Source: a bacterium
GTDB lineage: Bacteria > CG2-30-53-67
Length of the DNA stretch: 64,000 nucleotides
Assembly: GCA_919901565.1 (NCBI GenBank)
Contig: CAKKPE010000107.1
Coordinates: 7,091-71,090 of the forward strand
Direction: 5' to 3'
The notes beneath the pieces were generated by a model. It searched no databases, had not been told where the DNA came from, and saw only the letters and a program-made list of their open reading frames with translations. Positions 1,896-12,114 of this stretch are shown here, in pieces; position 1 is the first letter of the stretch; each line of letters begins with the position of its first letter. The translations under genes were made by a program, and so were the position numbers.

Positions 1896-2620
1896 CTATA
1901 GTCCCGATCCTCTCTGTATCTTGTCGAATACCCAGTCCCAGAACTCGATGCGTCCTATTCCTATGGGATCCAGTCTGAGTTGGTCCTTGATGCGTGGCCA
2001 GGCTTCAAGGAAAGCCTTAGGGCTGATGAACCGCGTGAATACGTCCCAGAAAGAAGCCCGCGACAAAAGCCTGGCAACAGACCAGGCAAACCTCTCATCC
2101 GATGGATCTCTCAGGATTTCTCTGAACTCGTCGTCCGAAATTGTTACATCCCAGGTCAGGTATCCCACGATTTCAGCCCTTCTTCAAATATCTCCGATGC
2201 TATTTCCTTGAGCCTGCCGTAAATGACATCCTCAGAATCGCTTACTTTTAGAATGGTCCCGCCTTCCGCGATCTGTTTCCTGGCAGAATCCCACATGCCG
2301 GAGAAAGGATCCTCGAGAAAATCGAGCTTAATCTCCTGGTCCATAACGCATACGTAAGACACCGCTCTCAGCAACCCCGGCTTGTCCGTTGTTCCGATCT
2401 GACGGCATTTCAGGTTCTTGCTCCTCAGCGCGTTGATGACTTTCTCGACAGCCGGAAAATCAAATTCAAAGCCGGTAAAATAGAAGTCCAGGTCTTCCGA
2501 GACTCGGTGGTACAGATAGAACCTGGACAAACCCGTCCCTCCGGAAAGCACAAACGGGAAGAATGCCATAGTTGAAACTTCTTTGAGTATCTTGTCCTGG
2601 TCCTGGTAAACTGGGATCAT
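1896..2620 (-). pseudogene. AbiEii-type nucleotidyltransferase toxin (type IV TA / abortive infection), frameshifted into two ORFs
   Basis: ORF 2156..2620 carries FPFVLSGGTGLSRFYLYHRVSEDLDFYF, the AbiEii GGTAL…SEDLDF signature. ORF 1896..2168 continues the same gene after a frameshift near 2156-2168. A short antitoxin-like remnant lies upstream at 2623-2770. Confidence 0.55.
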
Positions 2621-5108: not shown

Positions 5109-5825
5109 ATGCTGGGCAGAGAGATCAGGGGCAGGGTATCCGGGTTGCTGCTGTTTGCTTTTTTTCTTTTGTTCCACCTTCGGTATCTCGTCCAGAGATG
5201 GCATCTATTCGATCGGGTGGCCAGGCTGAACAGCCTGCTGATCACATTGACCATTATATTATTCCTGTCCGCGTATCTGATCCGGAAAAGGGCGGTTGAG
5301 TTTCCCCATGGATTTATGGAAACGGGATATCCCCTTGTGTGCGCGGCCCTTCCGCTCATCATTTATCACAATGTGGAGATATTGCATTACATCTCCACGG
5401 ACAGCCGGATTTACAGTCCTCTGAGCAGGTTTCTGGGTTTATACAGGCACCACCTGCTGGGATGGAATCTCTGCTCGATGACGCTGATCATCGCCGGCAA
5501 TCTGATCACGCTATCGGGCATGGTCTTTCTGAAGCGGTCTTTCAGTATCATGGTCGAGGCCAGGGCGCCTGTGTATCGCGGGATATACGCCTATATACGG
5601 CATCCCCTCTACCTCGGCGAAATTGTTGCGACGGTGGGGGTCCTCATATTCAGGTTCTCAATCATCAATATCATTCTGACCCTGCTTTTTGTTTTAGGCC
5701 AGAGAATCAGGGCAGGCATTGAAGAGAAAAAGCTTATTCATGCTTTTCCTGAGTATCTTGAATACAGAAGAAAGACAGGCGGGTTTTCCCCTAAGTGGCC
5801 CTATTACGATAATAGGGCCACTTAG
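5109..5825 (+). CDS. Isoprenylcysteine carboxyl methyltransferase / phospholipid methyltransferase family membrane protein
   Basis: Multi-pass hydrophobic profile with the RHPLYLGEIVATVGVLIFRFS motif typical of ICMT/PEMT. The last 12 codons are supplied by the palindrome at 5797-5829. Confidence 0.7.
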   Translation: MLGREIRGRVSGLLLFAFFLLFHLRYLVQRWHLFDRVARLNSLLITLTIILFLSAYLIRKRAVEFPHGFMETGYPLVCAALPLIIYHNVEILHYISTDSRIYSPLSRFLGLYRHHLLGWNLCSMTLIIAGNLITLSGMVFLKRSFSIMVEARAPVYRGIYAYIRHPLYLGEIVATVGVLIFRFSIINIILTLLFVLGQRIRAGIEEKKLIHAFPEYLEYRRKTGGFSPKWPYYDNRAT

Positions 5826-5830: not shown

Positions 5831-8083
5831 TTAATTGTCTGTAATGCTTACCTTGTTCATGATCACATCAGACAAAGGTTTATCGTTGGTGTCGGTATCC
5901 ACGAGGCCGATGGCCTGTACCACGTCCATGCCTTCCACTTCCACCACACGTCCGAAGACCGTATGGACGCCGTCCAGCCAGGGTGTTGCAGCCAGTGTGA
6001 TAAAGAACTGGCTGCCGCCCGTATTGGGCCCGGAGTTGGCCATGGAGAGAATGCCGGGCCCATCGTGTTTCAAAAGAAGATTGCCTGAATCGTCTTTTGG
6101 GAACTCGTCAATGATCTTGTATCCGGGGCCTCCGGTCCCGTTCCCATTGGGGTCGCCTCCCTGAATCATGAAATTTTCGATCACACGATGGAAAATCAAC
6201 TCATCGTAGTACCCGGTTTGCGCCAAATGGATGAAGTTCCTTGTGGTCAGAGGGACGAGGTCTTCAAAGAGCTCAAGCTTGACCGTGCCGTAGTTTGTTT
6301 CGATAACGGCAAACCGGTTGGGCGGAAGGCTGTCCGGCACGAAGTCGCCATCTGTATCTATGGCCGTACGTTCATCCAGCGGGAAAGGATCATCCGCATC
6401 CATGACCCCATCACCATCATCGTCAGGATCAACGTCGTTATTCTTCCCGTCGTTATCGGTATCCAGAGAGCGAGAAACACCATCATCCGTCTTGTCCGTG
6501 TCATCCGTGATCCCATCATAGTCGTCGTCGAGATCGGCATTGTTCCCGATCCCGTCCCCGTCGGTATCAAGACTTTCAGCCGGGTCGAGCGGGAAGGCAT
6601 CGTCCGCATCCAATACGCCGTCATTGTCGTCATCCGTATCGGCGTTGTTTCCGATGCCGTCCCCGTCGGTATCCAGACTTTCAGTCGGGTCCAGGGGGAA
6701 GGCATCGTCCGCATCCAATACGCCGTCATTGTCGTCATCAGGGTCCAAGATATTATCTATACCGTCATTGTCCGTATCGAGCGGGTAAATGTCAGTTATG
6801 TCCGGTATTCCATCTCCGTCGTCATCGAGGTCGGCGTTGTTCCCGATGCCGTCGCTGTCGGTATCCAGACTTTCAGCCGGGTCCAGCGGGAAGGCATCGG
6901 CTGCATCCAATACGCCGTCATTGTCGTCATCCGTATCGGCGTTGTTTCCGATGCCGTCTTTATCCGTATCCAAGCTCTCAGACGGATCCTGGGGGAAGGC
7001 ATCTTTGCTGTCCATAATTCCGTCTCCGTCGCTGTCAGGCCCTGTCTCAATCTTTACAAGATGAACGCCCTTGTCAGAGTCTGCCGTAACCAATCTGTCT
7101 CCGTCAACCAGCAGATCTATACAAGACCCTGGCGTATCCAGGCGGGCAGCAAAGGATGGCGCTGTGATATCTTTTATGTTTACGGCCTGAATGCCATTGC
7201 TGCCGTTGGCAATATACGCGTAATCGCCCTGAATTTTTATCTTGTAGGAATACTGGCTATTGGGATTAGAAGCATTATCCGTAAACGCGAGTGAAGATAC
7301 AAACGATGGATAAGTGCTTTTGATATTGTATATGGAAAGCCCGCTCCCTTGCCCTGCCATAAGGAGGTAGTCTCCATATTTTTCCAAAGTTGATATATTG
7401 TACCCGATATCGATTTGCTGAATGATTTGCGTGTAGGCCGGTTCGGAGATCGATATCATATCCAGGCCATTATCATTGGCTGCGACATAAGCCCCGTTGT
7501 TTGATAGAGCCGACTGCAAGAAAGCACTGTTTCCCTGAATCTGTCCCAGAAGGACCGGCGCCGTTGGAGCACTGATGTCGAGTATACTGAAAGAGTTCAT
7601 TCCGCTTATATATAGAGTATTCCCCTCGATGGAGAGATAATTTATGCTATCCGTGTTGAAAGAGGATACCATGATAGGGGAGCTTGGATTGGATATATCA
7701 ATGACCAGCAATCCATCAGAAGCTGTACCCAAATACAGATAGTTCCCTGATTTGGCTAAAGCAACGGCTTCACCGGTATTGATTTTAAGGGATCCGATCT
7801 CTTCTAATTTTGAGTTATTTGAAATTTTCAGGACAAGCAGTCCGGCGGAACCATCAGCCACGTAGATGTAGTTCCCGTCCTTCAGCAGGGAATAACTTGC
7901 ACCGGATGTATCGTAGGTGTCCAGAATTGAAAGGGCCATGACTTGGTTCGGCTCCGATGCTTCGGCAACGGTTGTAGGGGCATTGGATGAGCCTCCACCG
8001 CCACCGGAACAGCCGAGCATGAAAAGGGCGATAGATGTTAAAAGCCATGCGCTGAGGCTGAGTTTCGTTAAATAATTGCGCAT
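5831..8083 (-). CDS. Lipoprotein with LVIVD beta-propeller repeats, thrombospondin type-3 calcium-binding repeats and a C-terminal cyclophilin-type peptidyl-prolyl isomerase domain
   Basis: Lipobox [11 protein letters not shown]. Repeated GxYxY/LVxD blades. More than 12 DxDxDGxxDxxD TSP3 units. The C-terminus has [15 protein letters not shown]…[15 protein letters not shown]…VFGRVVEGMDVV, a cyclophilin motif. Confidence 0.8.
6330..7060. repeat. Tandem, near-identical DNA repeats encoding the TSP3 units
   Basis: Blocks such as ccgtcggtatccagactttcag…gggtccag recur every 90-130 bp. The antisense ORFs are correspondingly repetitive. Confidence 0.65.
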
Positions 8084-8441
8084 GAGAGATCTCCTTATTT
8101 TTTGTTTATTTCCTGTTTATAAAAATCACTTGGATTTTATGCAAGAACTATACCATCACGCCCGCATTGCCCAATCCGGCTGAAATAATTTTAATTAGGA
8201 TGTATCTATCTGTTTTTATTCGGGTATCATATTTTGCCAGTCGTTTGATCATATAGGGTATGAATAGCCTTGTGTGAAAAAGTTTTCCATTAATCGGAAA
8301 AAAAATTCCATTTATAGGAAAACTTTTTCCTATTCTTGTCTTTTCTTTAAATAGTCAAAATACAGATTGGGCAGTAGGAGGCAGCCAACATCATGGGGTC
8401 TCTGGGTCTGGTTTCATTTCCAAGCTGGTTTATATATAAGG

Positions 8442-9671
8442 TTATATCTCCCCGAACCTCTTCTTGAACGCATCGGGACTCATCTTTGCGGTTTGGGCGA
8501 GACGCGATAAGCGGTCTCCCCGGAAGTCCTCGGGATCCAGCCGGATCATGTAGCGCCGGGCCGTCTGGTAGATTTCGGAGTGCACGTCCACGGTCCGGAT
8601 CCGGGTCTTCCCGGTCTTGGGGTCCATGAGTTCAGTAAAGGGGATGGGGGTGGTCTTGCCGTCCTTGAACAGGACCATGGCGCCGGAGCCTCCCTCCAGG
8701 AGAAAACGCACCGCGCTGTATCCAAGGTTCCTCGTGTATTGCCGGTCAAATGCGGTCGGCGGGCTGCAGCGGAGCTCATAGCCGATGTCCTTGGCCACGA
8801 TGGTGGTTTTGATCCCCATCTCCTTGAGCTCCTTGGCAACTTCATTCTTGAGGATGGTCCCGAAGGGGATCTCGGCCAGGCGAATGTTGCCGTGTTCATC
8901 CCTGGGGGCATCCTTTACCAAGGAGAACGATTTAGGGTCAAGACGCGCAGCAACCCCTTCCGCAATCACGGCCACGCCATGGTCCTTGCCCATGGAGAGC
9001 CGCTTGATGATCGCGCCTTCCAGAATGTTCAAGACCTTGCGCAGGGAATAGGTCTTGCCCAGTTCCTCGGGGATCAGGGTCATGGTCGCTCCGGCGCCGG
9101 TCCCCATGCCCAGGGCCAGGAATCCTGCGGACCTTCCCATGGCGATCACAAAGTACCATCGTGCGGCGGTCCTGGCATCCTCCATGAGGTTTTCGACCAG
9201 TTTTGTCCCCAGTTCCCGGGCCGTTTCATATCCGAAGGTCGGTACGCCAGGCGGGAGGGGGAGGTCGTTGTCAATAGTCTTGGGCACATGGCAGACCGAG
9301 ATCCTTCCTTTGGCTTCCTTTTCCACCTGACTCGAGGTATAGGCCGTATCATCCCCGCCGATGGTCACCAGGTATCGGACCTTGAGGTCACTGAGCGCCC
9401 GGATCACGTTGGCCATTTTTTCAGGGCTCTTGGTCGGGTTTTCCCTGGATGTCCGGATGATGGATCCGCCTTTGAGATGGATCCTCGAGATATGGCCCAG
9501 ATTCAGGGGAAGGACGTGGGAGGTATCGCCTTGGGAGAGCCACTTGAAACCGTCCAGGATACCGAGCACGGTTTTGCCCTGGTTGATCGCCTCGATGCCG
9601 GCCGCGCTGATGACGCCGTTGATCCCGGGCGCCGGGCCGCCGCCTACGACAATGGCTAATGTCTCACTCAT
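8442..9671 (-). CDS. 6-phosphofructokinase, probably pyrophosphate-dependent (GGDD and PKTIDND signature)
   Basis: MSETLAIVVGGGPAPGINGV N-terminus with IGGDDTA. GGAG ribosome-binding site before the ATG at 9671. The MQVQVQV extension shown in the ORF track is an artefact of the upstream hexanucleotide repeat. Confidence 0.85.
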   Translation of the reverse strand: MSETLAIVVGGGPAPGINGVISAAGIEAINQGKTVLGILDGFKWLSQGDTSHVLPLNLGHISRIHLKGGSIIRTSRENPTKSPEKMANVIRALSDLKVRYLVTIGGDDTAYTSSQVEKEAKGRISVCHVPKTIDNDLPLPPGVPTFGYETARELGTKLVENLMEDARTAARWYFVIAMGRSAGFLALGMGTGAGATMTLIPEELGKTYSLRKVLNILEGAIIKRLSMGKDHGVAVIAEGVAARLDPKSFSLVKDAPRDEHGNIRLAEIPFGTILKNEVAKELKEMGIKTTIVAKDIGYELRCSPPTAFDRQYTRNLGYSAVRFLLEGGSGAMVLFKDGKTTPIPFTELMDPKTGKTRIRTVDVHSEIYQTARRYMIRLDPEDFRGDRLSRLAQTAKMSPDAFKKRFGEI

Positions 9672-9687
9672 GTTTTTCTCCCATTGT

Positions 9688-10140
9688 CTAAAAGGGGATG
9701 TCATCTTCAATTGTGGAGGCTCCGTCGGGCGCCTCATGTTCCGCTGCTGTATGATCAGAACCAGGACCTGAACCTGCACCTGCACCTGCACCTGCACCTG
9801 AACCGGGACCTCCCAGCATGATCATGTTCTCTGCCCGGATCTCGGTGGTATACCGCTTGTTCCCGTCCTTGTCTTCCCAGGACCGGGTGTTCAGCCTCCC
9901 TTCGATGTAGATCTGTTTCCCTTTGGTCAGATATTCTCCACAGATTTCACCGAGTTTGCCCCAAGCCACGAGATTGTGCCATTCTGTCCGTTCGTTTTTT
10001 TGTCCGTCCTTCCCGGTCCAGGTCTCATTGGTGGCCAGCGAAAAATTGGCCACGGCCGACCCATTCGCCGTATATCTGACCTCGGGGTTTTTCCCCAGTC
10101 TCCCTATCAGCTGCACCCTGTTTAAACTTTTCATGAACAA
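9688..10140 (-). CDS. ssb: Single-stranded DNA-binding protein
   Basis: OB-fold sequence [18 protein letters not shown]…[10 protein letters not shown], a Gly/Ala linker and the acidic DDIPF tail. Confidence 0.85.
9763..9812. repeat. Hexanucleotide microsatellite (ACCTGN)n of about 7 units, encoding the GAGAGAG linker of SSB
   Basis: gacctgaacctgcacctgcacctgcacctgcacctgaaccgggacc, read directly. Confidence 0.8.
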
Positions 10141-10266: not shown

Positions 10267-12114
10267 TCAGCTAAGACTGCTTTGAAGGACGACGAGCGCC
10301 TTGTCGTCCATTTTATTCTTTTCATAGTATTCCCGTTCCAGTTCCTCAAGGGTAAACCGGTCCAGGCCGCTATTTTCGAAGAAATCCTGCCTGAGCCGGG
10401 TATTCTGCTCGGCGATGATCTGCGGCAGGAGCTTTTCTGTATAATAGATCTCCTTGTTGAGGTTCAGTATGGCCTGGTTGAGGAGATAATCCAGAAGATT
10501 CTTGTTTACTTCCAGATAGACCGATAGTTCGGTGAAGAGTTGTCTTCGGATCGCTTCACGCTGTTGTTTAGAGTGGATCTTCGTGTAGACGTCCCGGATT
10601 CTTTCTTTTATGCTCTCATAGACCTTGAAATAAAGTTTCTGCTGCTCCTGGATCCCGGAAATGGCCTCAACCACATCTGCAAGGGTTTTGTCCCCGTTCT
10701 CGATGCACTGAACCCCTTCAGAGACGGCAAGGATCTTCTTCCTGCCGAAATGGGAGAGGTATTTGTTCTGTAACACGGAGAGGATAAAAAGTTCATGAAA
10801 GAGACTCGGATGGGTTTCATCAAATACCTTTTTATGCCCCAGGAGGCTTCTGAGCTTGTCCGTGGTCAGTTCGATCTCTTCGTTGAAGGCGAGCTGGTTG
10901 ATGATCATGTAGGTGGCGTCGTACCGGTCGAAATGTGTCACGATATATCCGAAGTTTTCCAAAGACCAGTCGTTCCCCTGTTTTTCTGAAAGTTCATCGC
11001 AGAGCCGGACGGTATCCATGAGGATGCCGTCGAATGTCGGATCCTGGAATTCCGTGGCTTTCTTTTTGGCCCAGAGAAGCTTTACAAGATCGTCTTTTGT
11101 AATCAGGCTCTCAATGCTCCCTTCCTTGATGAAAAGTCCCTCGAAGATCTCCCTGGTTTCCTGGATGTACTCGGGTTCGTCCACCTTCATCAGCTTTTTG
11201 TTTTTCAAGAGCAGGTCGTCCAGGATATTGGGAAGGACGATAGGGATATTTTTACGCACACAGAGGGTTCTCAGCCGGATTAGCCGGGCCTGCTGGGAAT
11301 GGCTGATTTCCTGTCTGCTCTCTCCTTCGATCAGTACATCCTTGTATTCATCGATCACCCGTTTGTTCTCAGGGTGTTTATAGATTACGTCGATCTTCAT
11401 CCGCTCCTGATCGTACTGATTGATCCGGTAATGAGATGCCAGGGCCTGGATTCTCTCCGCGTCCTTCGCGGAGAAGGACTTGTCCTTGTAGTAGATCTCT
11501 TTATACAGATTGTAGAAAGCCTCGTGGTGTTTGTTGACGATCCGGACCAGGAAGAAGAGATAACGGGAACGGTTCATCTCGGTAAGGATTTCCTGAATGA
11601 GACCCAGGTCGTCGCTCCGGCTCACAAAAGCAGAGCGTTTAAGGCGTTTTCCCATGCTTCGCAGGATATATTCCTGCTGCCGGCGGAACTCTTTGATCTC
11701 TTCGAAATAGACAAAGAAAAAATAATTGGTTATGGTGTTCCCTTCAAAGAAGATCTTTGCATAGTCTTCAAACCCGTTGCTTCGAGAAATAAAGTCAATA
11801 CCTTTATCCTCATCCGAGGCTACGGCGCCATACATGATCAGGCGGTTCAGGACCTCTTTTCGCATCAGATCTTCAATGGGCAGCTCCCCTCCGAACATGT
11901 ACTCACAAAAGCTCCCGCCGTTCCCTTTGTGTTGAAATCCATCGCGCGTAAGAATCAGTTCGTTGCCGAGAGAGAAGAACCGGGTATACGGTCCCCGCTG
12001 CGGATCCTTTCCCTCCTCGAAGAAATAGCGATGGCTGATATCATGACCGGCAATGGTCGTGAAGAACTCAATCTTATCAGATAGGGTGCCGTGTAGACGG
12101 ATGTCCTGGATCAT
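10267..12114 (-). CDS. Large conserved hypothetical protein (615 aa), no assignable domain
   Basis: Long uninterrupted ORF, consistent codon usage, sits between ssb and the PLD-like gene. Confidence 0.55.
   Translation of the reverse strand: MIQDIRLHGTLSDKIEFFTTIAGHDISHRYFFEEGKDPQRGPYTRFFSLGNELILTRDGFQHKGNGGSFCEYMFGGELPIEDLMRKEVLNRLIMYGAVASDEDKGIDFISRSNGFEDYAKIFFEGNTITNYFFFVYFEEIKEFRRQQEYILRSMGKRLKRSAFVSRSDDLGLIQEILTEMNRSRYLFFLVRIVNKHHEAFYNLYKEIYYKDKSFSAKDAERIQALASHYRINQYDQERMKIDVIYKHPENKRVIDEYKDVLIEGESRQEISHSQQARLIRLRTLCVRKNIPIVLPNILDDLLLKNKKLMKVDEPEYIQETREIFEGLFIKEGSIESLITKDDLVKLLWAKKKATEFQDPTFDGILMDTVRLCDELSEKQGNDWSLENFGYIVTHFDRYDATYMIINQLAFNEEIELTTDKLRSLLGHKKVFDETHPSLFHELFILSVLQNKYLSHFGRKKILAVSEGVQCIENGDKTLADVVEAISGIQEQQKLYFKVYESIKERIRDVYTKIHSKQQREAIRRQLFTELSVYLEVNKNLLDYLLNQAILNLNKEIYYTEKLLPQIIAEQNTRLRQDFFENSGLDRFTLEELEREYYEKNKMDDKALVVLQSSLS

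Follow-up and report, generated by a model that had tools for sequence, protein, structure and literature searches.

Known Relatives of the Protein

In two-membrane bacteria, the folding of proteins outside the cytoplasm is commonly attributed to SurA, Skp, FkpA, PpiD, and a soluble PpiA. We examine here a gene located at positions 5831 to 8083, on the minus strand, of a 64,000-nucleotide (nt) stretch of contig CAKKPE010000107.1 (hereafter, the window). This open reading frame (ORF) is a genuine gene and, judging from its sequence, it encodes a lipid-anchored envelope protein in which a beta-propeller and a variable number of Asp-rich repeats precede an apparently intact prolyl isomerase of the cyclophilin type. 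The domain combination is unusual and defines a small, uncharacterized protein family found in groundwater bacteria; it is not a new kind of system. We lean toward seeing the protein as an envelope-anchored, targeted prolyl isomerase, i.e., a foldase.

The small lipoprotein or surface cyclophilins, such as Streptococcus pneumoniae SlrA and the PpiA proteins of Streptococcus pyogenes and Lactococcus lactis, likewise possess an N-terminal anchor and an extracytoplasmic peptidyl-prolyl isomerase (PPIase), and both PPIase and chaperone activities on secreted proteins have been shown for SlrA and PpiA in streptococci and Lactococcus (PMC11853100, PMC3307742). Proteins of this type are single-domain, whereas about 560 residues (a tether, a propeller, and a repeat array) separate the anchor from the enzyme in the window, and the streptococcal cyclophilin structures 7l6z and 7l6y are only 33–36% identical to the domain studied here. 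Closer in sequence are unnamed lipobox-bearing cyclophilins of 187–212 amino acids (aa), the catalytic domain of which is 62–72% identical to ours. SurA, PpiD, PrsA, and FkpA may be said to follow the same modular logic, i.e., an anchored or periplasmic PPIase combined with a non-catalytic binding domain (PMC2956729). However, their catalytic domains are of the parvulin or FKBP type and their chaperone domains are helical, so that the likeness is one of analogy and not of homology; the protein has no Pfam match to a parvulin (Rotamase) or SurA_N-type domain.

Two other described systems share the order of the domains or the nature of the propeller. PPWD1 and Arabidopsis CYP71 also combine a propeller, of the WD40 type, with a C-terminal cyclophilin (PMC6315705). 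These proteins are nuclear or spliceosomal and have neither a signal peptide nor Ca2+ repeats, whereas the propeller of the window is of the LVIVD type; its protein matches WD40-type Pfam profiles with 13–25 bits vs. cut-offs of 40–305. The architecture shared with PPWD1 and CYP71 is most likely convergent. The secreted LVIVD propeller proteins (COG5276) also contain PF08309 repeats folding into a propeller and are predicted to be cell-surface proteins (PMC2447325), although the other LVIVD propellers obtained in our scans are only 21–37% identical to the one here. Concerning the repeats, thrombospondin, COMP, and the bacterial TSP3 linkers are made of the same DxDxDGxxDxxD units, short and long ones alternating. 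In bacteria, such type 3 repeats serve as linkers between envelope domains (PMC12045341, PMC2386152). They are found in OmpA-family proteins, Myxococcus xanthus TraB, and Saccharophagus degradans secreted enzymes, while the array of the window differs in being Cys-free. In the literature on LVIVD proteins, lipoprotein or multidomain cyclophilins, and bacterial type 3 repeats, no description of a protein combining LVIVD and cyclophilin was found. Hence, whereas each module alone is well known, the family composed of a lipobox, an LVIVD propeller, 0–13 repeats, and a cyclophilin appears to be undescribed.

One Gene, Three Modules, and a Family

The coding sequence (5831..8083, minus strand, as are all the features of the gene given below) is complete: it starts with ATG, encodes 750 aa, and ends with a stop codon at 5831-5833. 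A Shine-Dalgarno sequence, AAGGAG, can be read directly 7 nt before the ATG (8091..8096). The same 750-aa sequence is present, unchanged, in public collections (P0313, on a contig of 72,760 bp). From the N-terminus onward, pattern matching gives a predicted signal peptide ending in the lipobox FMLG/C at Cys25 (residues 1–25, 8009..8083), which is followed by a Gly/Ser-rich tether modeled with low confidence (residues 26–45, 7949..8008; predicted local distance difference test score, pLDDT, below 50 for residues 23–45). Then come a seven-bladed LVIVD beta-propeller, supported by Pfam, AlphaFold2 (AF2), and Foldseek (residues 46–349, 7037..7948); a Cys-free, thrombospondin-type-3-like Asp-rich array, supported by its motifs, by Tandem Repeats Finder (TRF), and by matches in the PDB (residues 350–588, 6320..7036); and finally a cyclophilin-type PPIase domain, supported by Pfam, by alignment with human cyclophilin A (CypA), by AF2, and by Foldseek (residues 589–750, 5834..6319). 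The whole protein contains two Cys, at positions 25 and 321.

The initial annotation, made from the sequence alone, had described a lipoprotein with these three modules, and the Pfam matches, the repeat motif, and the lipobox pattern bear it out. In the domain searches it had called for, Pro_isomerase and LVIVD both scored above their cut-offs (170.6 and 115.7 bits, respectively), while TSP_3 remained below its own and the type 3 assignment is carried instead by the motif and by PDB matches to thrombospondin type 3 wires. Structure prediction gave a confident seven-bladed propeller and a confident cyclophilin, the repeats being of low confidence.

At least 11 independent homologues share this architecture, with 45–69% identity; they come from groundwater metagenomes, of Nitrospirae and Desulfobacterales, and from other metagenomes. 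The domain order is the same in P0001–P0006, P0011, P0014, P0015, P0361, and P0386, and lipobox, propeller, repeats, and cyclophilin all succeed one another in P0001, P0003–P0006, P0011, P0014, and P0015. The named members belong to groundwater metagenome-assembled genomes (MAGs) of Nitrospirae and Desulfobacterales; one of them, P0001 (Nitrospirae bacterium CG_4_9_14_3_um_filter_53_35), is 67% identical by BLASTP at 100% coverage and 69% identical in the alignment. The family is annotated only as "hypothetical protein". P0361 (572 aa) and P0386 (544 aa) are further LVIVD-cyclophilin clusters, obtained by searching residues 506–750 against 1.84 billion cluster representatives; among the best 150 matches of that search, the full-length clusters with LVIVD and cyclophilin are only P0014, P0004, P0361, and P0386. 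Searches with the cyclophilin only or the propeller only return only proteins of about the length of the query and miss known fusions, and are unusable for counting the family. A scan of GTDB representative genomes with a three-sequence propeller alignment, which recovered neither the genome of the window nor that of P0001, found no close relative. Among 63 distant LVIVD loci of these genomes (21–32% identical), none had a cyclophilin in the retrieved flank, of up to 6 kb.

The members differ in what separates the propeller from the enzyme. In eleven members with a single propeller, this spacer measures 11–258 aa and contains 0–13 motifs, the longest one (258 aa) having 12–13 motifs. In P0386, the propeller is fused directly to the cyclophilin (11 aa between them, 0 motifs), while P0004 has a 485-aa interval containing a second LVIVD propeller, with type-3-like repeats between the two propellers. 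Nearly all members keep the last ~5 units before the enzyme, the gains and losses taking place in the middle of the array. Since P0386 lacks any repeats, the protein can do without the array, which is a spacer rather than its central part; and since the number of spacer motifs varies from 0 to 13 across the family, the constant core, as predicted from the aligned members, is made of the anchor, the propeller, and the cyclophilin.

An Apparently Competent Cyclophilin

The C-terminal domain matches Pfam Pro_isomerase (PF00160) over residues 592–745 with an E-value of 4e-50 (170.6 bits vs. a cut-off of 21.7), the NCBIfam matches to PpiA and PpiB being sub-threshold. It is 54% identical to human CypA, for which we used a sequence checked through its residue numbering. 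Eleven of the 12 catalytic and cyclosporin-contact residues compared are identical (R55, F60, M61, Q63, A101, N102, Q111, F113, W121, L122, and H126), A103 being replaced by Ser. All 12 members retain the core motifs FHRVI..FM.Q.GD, SMAN, and GGSQFFI. When modeled by AF2 from a 45-sequence alignment of residues 506–750, the domain reached block means of 83–98, with one 10-residue block at 67; in the full-length model, built from 10 sequences, the cyclophilin was poor (pLDDT ~30–50). Foldseek related the model to PPIL1-type cyclophilins (9l5r_S, target-normalized TM-score 0.93, rmsd 1.7 Å). By its Pfam match, its CypA-like residues, and its modeled eight-stranded barrel fold, the domain is the C-terminal cyclophilin that had been announced, and it looks catalytically competent. 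Both assemblies of this organism also show a two-residue duplication, VEVEG, at residues ~712–716, which is not within the catalytic motifs; the nine other aligned members have VEG, VQG, or MEG at this place.

The 120 closest stand-alone cyclophilins are 62–72% identical to this domain, and among those of at least 175 aa, 68 of 91 have a lipobox-like N-terminus. Because the closest stand-alone relatives are mostly small lipobox-bearing proteins, the simplest history would be the insertion of a propeller and a spacer into a small lipoprotein cyclophilin, behind its anchor and ahead of its enzyme. The premise of the initial annotation, that cyclophilins are normally small stand-alone enzymes, is roughly correct; it does not extend to four of the six larger proteins that we took from the search of cluster representatives and scanned with Pfam, which carry cyclophilin modules. 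These four (P0364, P0367, P0446, and P0481; 618–2071 aa) contain one or two cyclophilin domains each, are predicted to be secreted or surface-located, and associate the cyclophilin with Ig-like, cadherin-like, FG-GAP, or RTX repeats or with a type IX secretion system (T9SS) sorting domain. The presence of cyclophilin modules in large extracytoplasmic proteins is apparently a wider and undescribed use.

The Propeller, the Anchor, and Two Rival Functions

Pfam LVIVD (PF08309) is found in five stretches (E 5.6e-34, 115.7 bits vs. a cut-off of 20.2). In the AF2 model obtained with 10 sequences, residues 46–349 form 28 strands, i.e., seven four-stranded blades, with 10-residue pLDDT block means mostly between 82 and 95. 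These tandem Pfam copies and this closed seven-bladed model confirm the LVIVD propeller. The structural matches given by Foldseek are propellers of seven to eight blades (beta-TrCP WD40, G-beta, and BamB), with E-values of ~1e-16 to 1e-12 and 10–15% identity; since they are only generic propellers, the ligand of this one cannot be inferred from them.

The protein could also have a narrower role, namely, maturing one specific partner. The propeller would then dock on a single machine of the envelope or on one abundant client, e.g., a complex for the assembly of outer-membrane proteins or for secretion, an S-layer protein, or a cytochrome, and that client would be the one substrate of the cyclophilin. 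The succession of a propeller and a cyclophilin as in PPWD1 and CYP71, the PPIase domains of which are among the best PDB matches (6lkb, E 1.9e-43; 2a2n, E 1.2e-35), speaks for such a factor, and so do the lipoprotein propeller BamB among the structural matches and the direct propeller-cyclophilin fusion of P0386. However, there is no conserved neighbor gene to name the partner, and the BamB and WD40 matches are generic, as their low identity indicates. We hold a partner-specific maturation factor to be quite unlikely.

The foldase that we favor would be attached to the envelope by its N-terminus, SIALFMLGC followed by SGGGGGSS, in which a lipobox-like pattern, MLGC, occupies residues 22–25. 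G24 and C25 do not vary among the 10 aligned family members, residues 2–23 are modeled as a helix by AF2, and similar poly-Gly stretches follow the anchor in other members. Judged by eye, the basic residues, the hydrophobic stretch, and FMLGC also fit the PROSITE lipoprotein pattern PS51257. We infer from this that Cys25 is lipidated. As for the compartment, the prediction extends to a lipid anchor and no further, so that the protein may be placed on the periplasmic face or, as initially proposed, at the cell surface. The E. coli +2 rule, by which a Ser at +2, as here, means sorting to the outer membrane, may not hold in Nitrospirae. The host is likely a two-membrane bacterium, since the window contains a predicted beta-barrel porin gene and since the proteins of neighboring genes cluster at ≥90% identity with the MAG of Nitrospirae bacterium CG2_30_53_67.

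A surface location would suit another explanation, in which the protein is an adhesin or matrix protein, attaching to cells, minerals, or matrix by its propeller and its Ca2+ repeats, while the cyclophilin mainly binds proline motifs. LVIVD proteins are reported to be located at the cell surface, and a role in attachment has been proposed for them (PMC2447325; bioRxiv 10.1101/2022.05.06.490989). Bacterial enzymes and adhesins that are secreted or exposed at the surface often contain type-3-like repeats, and the other large cyclophilin-bearing proteins have Ig-like, FG-GAP, RTX, or T9SS modules. Moreover, the gene of P0004 (locus L003, 7001–10036) lies inside a Wzz/Wzy/MBOAT polysaccharide-synthesis cluster, which is the only hint of a cell-surface link given by the genomic contexts. 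On the other hand, the strict conservation of the catalytic residues is what an enzyme would show; the closest relatives of the domain, at 62–72% identity, are ordinary small cyclophilins; and, beyond the lipobox, no surface-export signal (T9SS, autotransporter, or sortase motif) is present among the Pfam and NCBIfam matches of the protein. We therefore consider an adhesin unlikely and keep the foldase as our preferred reading.

An Asp-Rich Spacer Related to Type 3 Repeats

The array contains 13 strict D.D.D[G..]..[DN]..[DE] motifs within residues 350–565 and a degenerate 14th one at residue 576. Short units (13 aa) and longer ones (22 aa, or 16 aa) alternate, with a super-unit of 35 aa, i.e., 105 nt, and residues 350–588 comprise 33% Asp and 0 Cys. 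The family assignment of these repeats depends on the tool. Pfam TSP_3 (PF02412) is not detected in the full-length scan and reaches 21 bits (E 2.7e-4) vs. a cut-off of 25 with the isolated array, while NCBIfam throspo3_MtsC matches weakly (58 bits vs. a cut-off of 350). Using phmmer against the PDB, the array retrieves the type 3 wires of thrombospondin-2, COMP, and thrombospondin-1 (E 9e-9 to 2e-5), its only other match having an E-value of 0.73, and it aligns in register with the wires of thrombospondin-2 and COMP, with other residues at the Cys positions. Thus, of the more than 12 TSP3 repeats initially proposed, the number stands, with 13 strict motifs and a degenerate one, while their identity as TSP3 is weakened by the sub-threshold TSP_3 score and by the lack of Cys. 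On its motifs and alignments, we find it reasonable to call the array thrombospondin-type-3-like despite the sub-threshold Pfam score, and it probably binds Ca2+. The pLDDT of the repeats is low whichever AF2 run is considered, which is not surprising for ion-dependent wires.

At the DNA level, TRF detects in the array a period of 105 nt (2.1–2.2 copies, 85–88%). When the four 35-aa super-units are compared with one another, their nucleotide identity is 55–64%, except for one pair at 91%, and the longest exact DNA repeat measures 56 nt. The description of the array as near-identical tandem DNA units was therefore overstated.

Reliability of the Assembled Gene

Repetitive arrays of this kind are prone to splitting in public data. 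The sister scaffold L070 (73,117 bp, ENA ERZ1292631) has 100 N inside the array (L070 3764-3863), and the 90% cluster of P0313 also contains P0314, a 305-aa call from this same scaffold. The left contig of L070 is identical to the window for the first 1253 nt of the coding sequence, i.e., up to residue 417; past window position 6831 it diverges into one extra repeat unit. The right contig begins at nt 1199 of the coding sequence, so that the two contigs overlap by only 55 nt, inside the array (6831..6885, minus strand). The right flank of L070 is 100% identical to the window over 5,055 nt. Either the population is mixed or the array of this organism is longer than that of the window, by one 105-nt unit or more; and because of the gap and of the extra unit, the repeat count of the window is uncertain.

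Could the ORF as a whole be an assembly artifact, with a collapsed repeat array as the junction of a chimera? The gap of L070, flanked by contigs with so short an overlap, would agree with it, as would the splitting of homologues at the array by gene callers (P0314, P0330, and P0123). However, the same N-to-C order is found in the ≥11 independent homologues, which come from differing samples and assemblers; the 745-aa allele of P0001 is present in five independent gap-free metagenome assemblies; and both flanks of L070 match the window. A chimera is hardly credible in view of these data and can be regarded as effectively refuted: the fusion itself is solid and the doubt concerns only the repeat count.

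The variability of this count, which had been suspected, was found across homologues and assemblies, where it proceeds by whole units. Besides the range of 0–13 motifs in the family and the gap of L070, three length alleles exist in the lineage of P0001 (745, 710, and 653 aa): L073 lacks exactly one 35-aa unit, and P0002 lacks 92 aa in frame, with one other substitution only. In the P0006 cluster, on the contrary, all nine members are 681 aa long. Since the P0001 alleles differ in frame while the P0006 cluster is uniform, the repeat number shifts by whole units and the array is not hypervariable, these shifts being due to biological change or to assembler collapse.

The locus also illustrates how such arrays break assemblies and gene calls. 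The Asp-repeat arrays are associated with truncated calls of 305 aa (P0314), 391 aa (P0330), and 245 aa (P0123). As three gene calls and one scaffold are split in this way, the database counts of such fusions are probably too low.

How the Protein Might Work

The role of envelope-anchored and targeted foldase, which we favor with moderate confidence, can be pictured as follows. After export, the protein would be lipidated at Cys25, and the flexible Gly/Ser tether would hold the seven-bladed LVIVD propeller at the membrane. The propeller would be the module that binds clients or partners. The Asp-rich array, probably loaded with Ca2+, would act as a spacer of evolvable length, at the end of which the distal cyclophilin would isomerize Xaa-Pro bonds. 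The clients of such a foldase would be exported or envelope proteins.

Several observations weigh against this scheme. The array lacks the Cys pairs of true type 3 repeats, and a 2017 study by Dai et al., on the one solved bacterial TSP3 structure, reportedly calls Ca2+ binding disulfide-dependent in its title (cited in PMC12045341). The equivalents of W121 and H126 are replaced in some members (by G, T, or H and by Y, respectively), lipobox positions -3 and -2 (M and L) deviate from the strict consensus, and the propeller resembles generic propellers only. Finally, the window and the four homologous loci have no family-wide conserved neighborhood, and for this reason no partner or pathway is indicated.

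A bolder version, to which we give little credence, would make these proteins an unrecognized class of reach-tuned envelope foldases. The propeller would recruit the clients, and the Asp repeats, stiffened by Ca2+, would form a ruler setting the reach of the cyclophilin. This ruler, of 0–14 units, would be altered by whole 35-aa units through recombination in subsurface two-membrane bacteria. If this were true, these proteins would, together with the Ig-like, RTX, and T9SS proteins mentioned above, reveal a wider, undescribed extracytoplasmic use of cyclophilins as modules of surface proteins.

The interest of the family depends on which of these roles it plays. A lipid-anchored cyclophilin equipped with its own propeller and with a Ca2+-repeat spacer of variable length would represent a distinct foldase design, in poorly studied groundwater lineages; should the protein be just one more modular surface protein, the finding would matter little. 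The family also constitutes a natural series in which to study the role of Cys-free type-3-like repeats, the spacer varying from 0 to 13 units while the propeller and the enzyme are constant.

Surroundings of the Gene

The gene stands alone, convergent with a PEMT/ICMT-like membrane methyltransferase gene (5109-5825, plus strand). A perfect hairpin with a 16-bp stem and a 3-nt loop, CTAAGTGGCCCTATTACGATAATAGGGCCACTTAG (5791..5825), is located between the convergent stop codons. It is 6 nt away from the stop of the cyclophilin gene and shares sequence with the final codons of the PEMT/ICMT-like gene; it is likely a bidirectional terminator of the pair. The neighbors in the window are genes for a phosphofructokinase and a FAD oxidoreductase, in addition to the PEMT/ICMT-like gene. 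At locus L001, the neighbors are NIR_SIR-type reductases, MFS, and NrfD, and L002 and L005 have SpoU and a metallophosphatase, common to these two loci only. No paralogue of the gene was found in the window; the Rfam scan gave one tRNA only, far from the gene, and the promoter scan gave nothing above chance.

The AT-rich intergenic region upstream of the gene (8084-8441) contains a 21-bp tandem unit, present in 2.6 copies according to TRF (8276-8330). This repeat includes three GGAAAnnnTTTTCC-like palindromes, which could be a putative array of regulator binding sites. On the other side of this region, the mechanically called phosphofructokinase ORF (8442-9797, minus strand) begins at a GTG. 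Since the sister assembly calls a product of 409 aa, the true start is probably located ~40 codons downstream, leaving the QV run untranslated. Further along, a gene at 10267-12114 (minus strand) encodes a 615-aa protein of unknown function of the TIGR04442 family; it had no Pfam match in our scan, while its sister locus has a precomputed match to PF27907 (CHP04442). Lastly, an AbiEii-like toxin fragment of 154 aa, covering profile positions 14–63 only, is encoded at 2156-2620 (minus strand).

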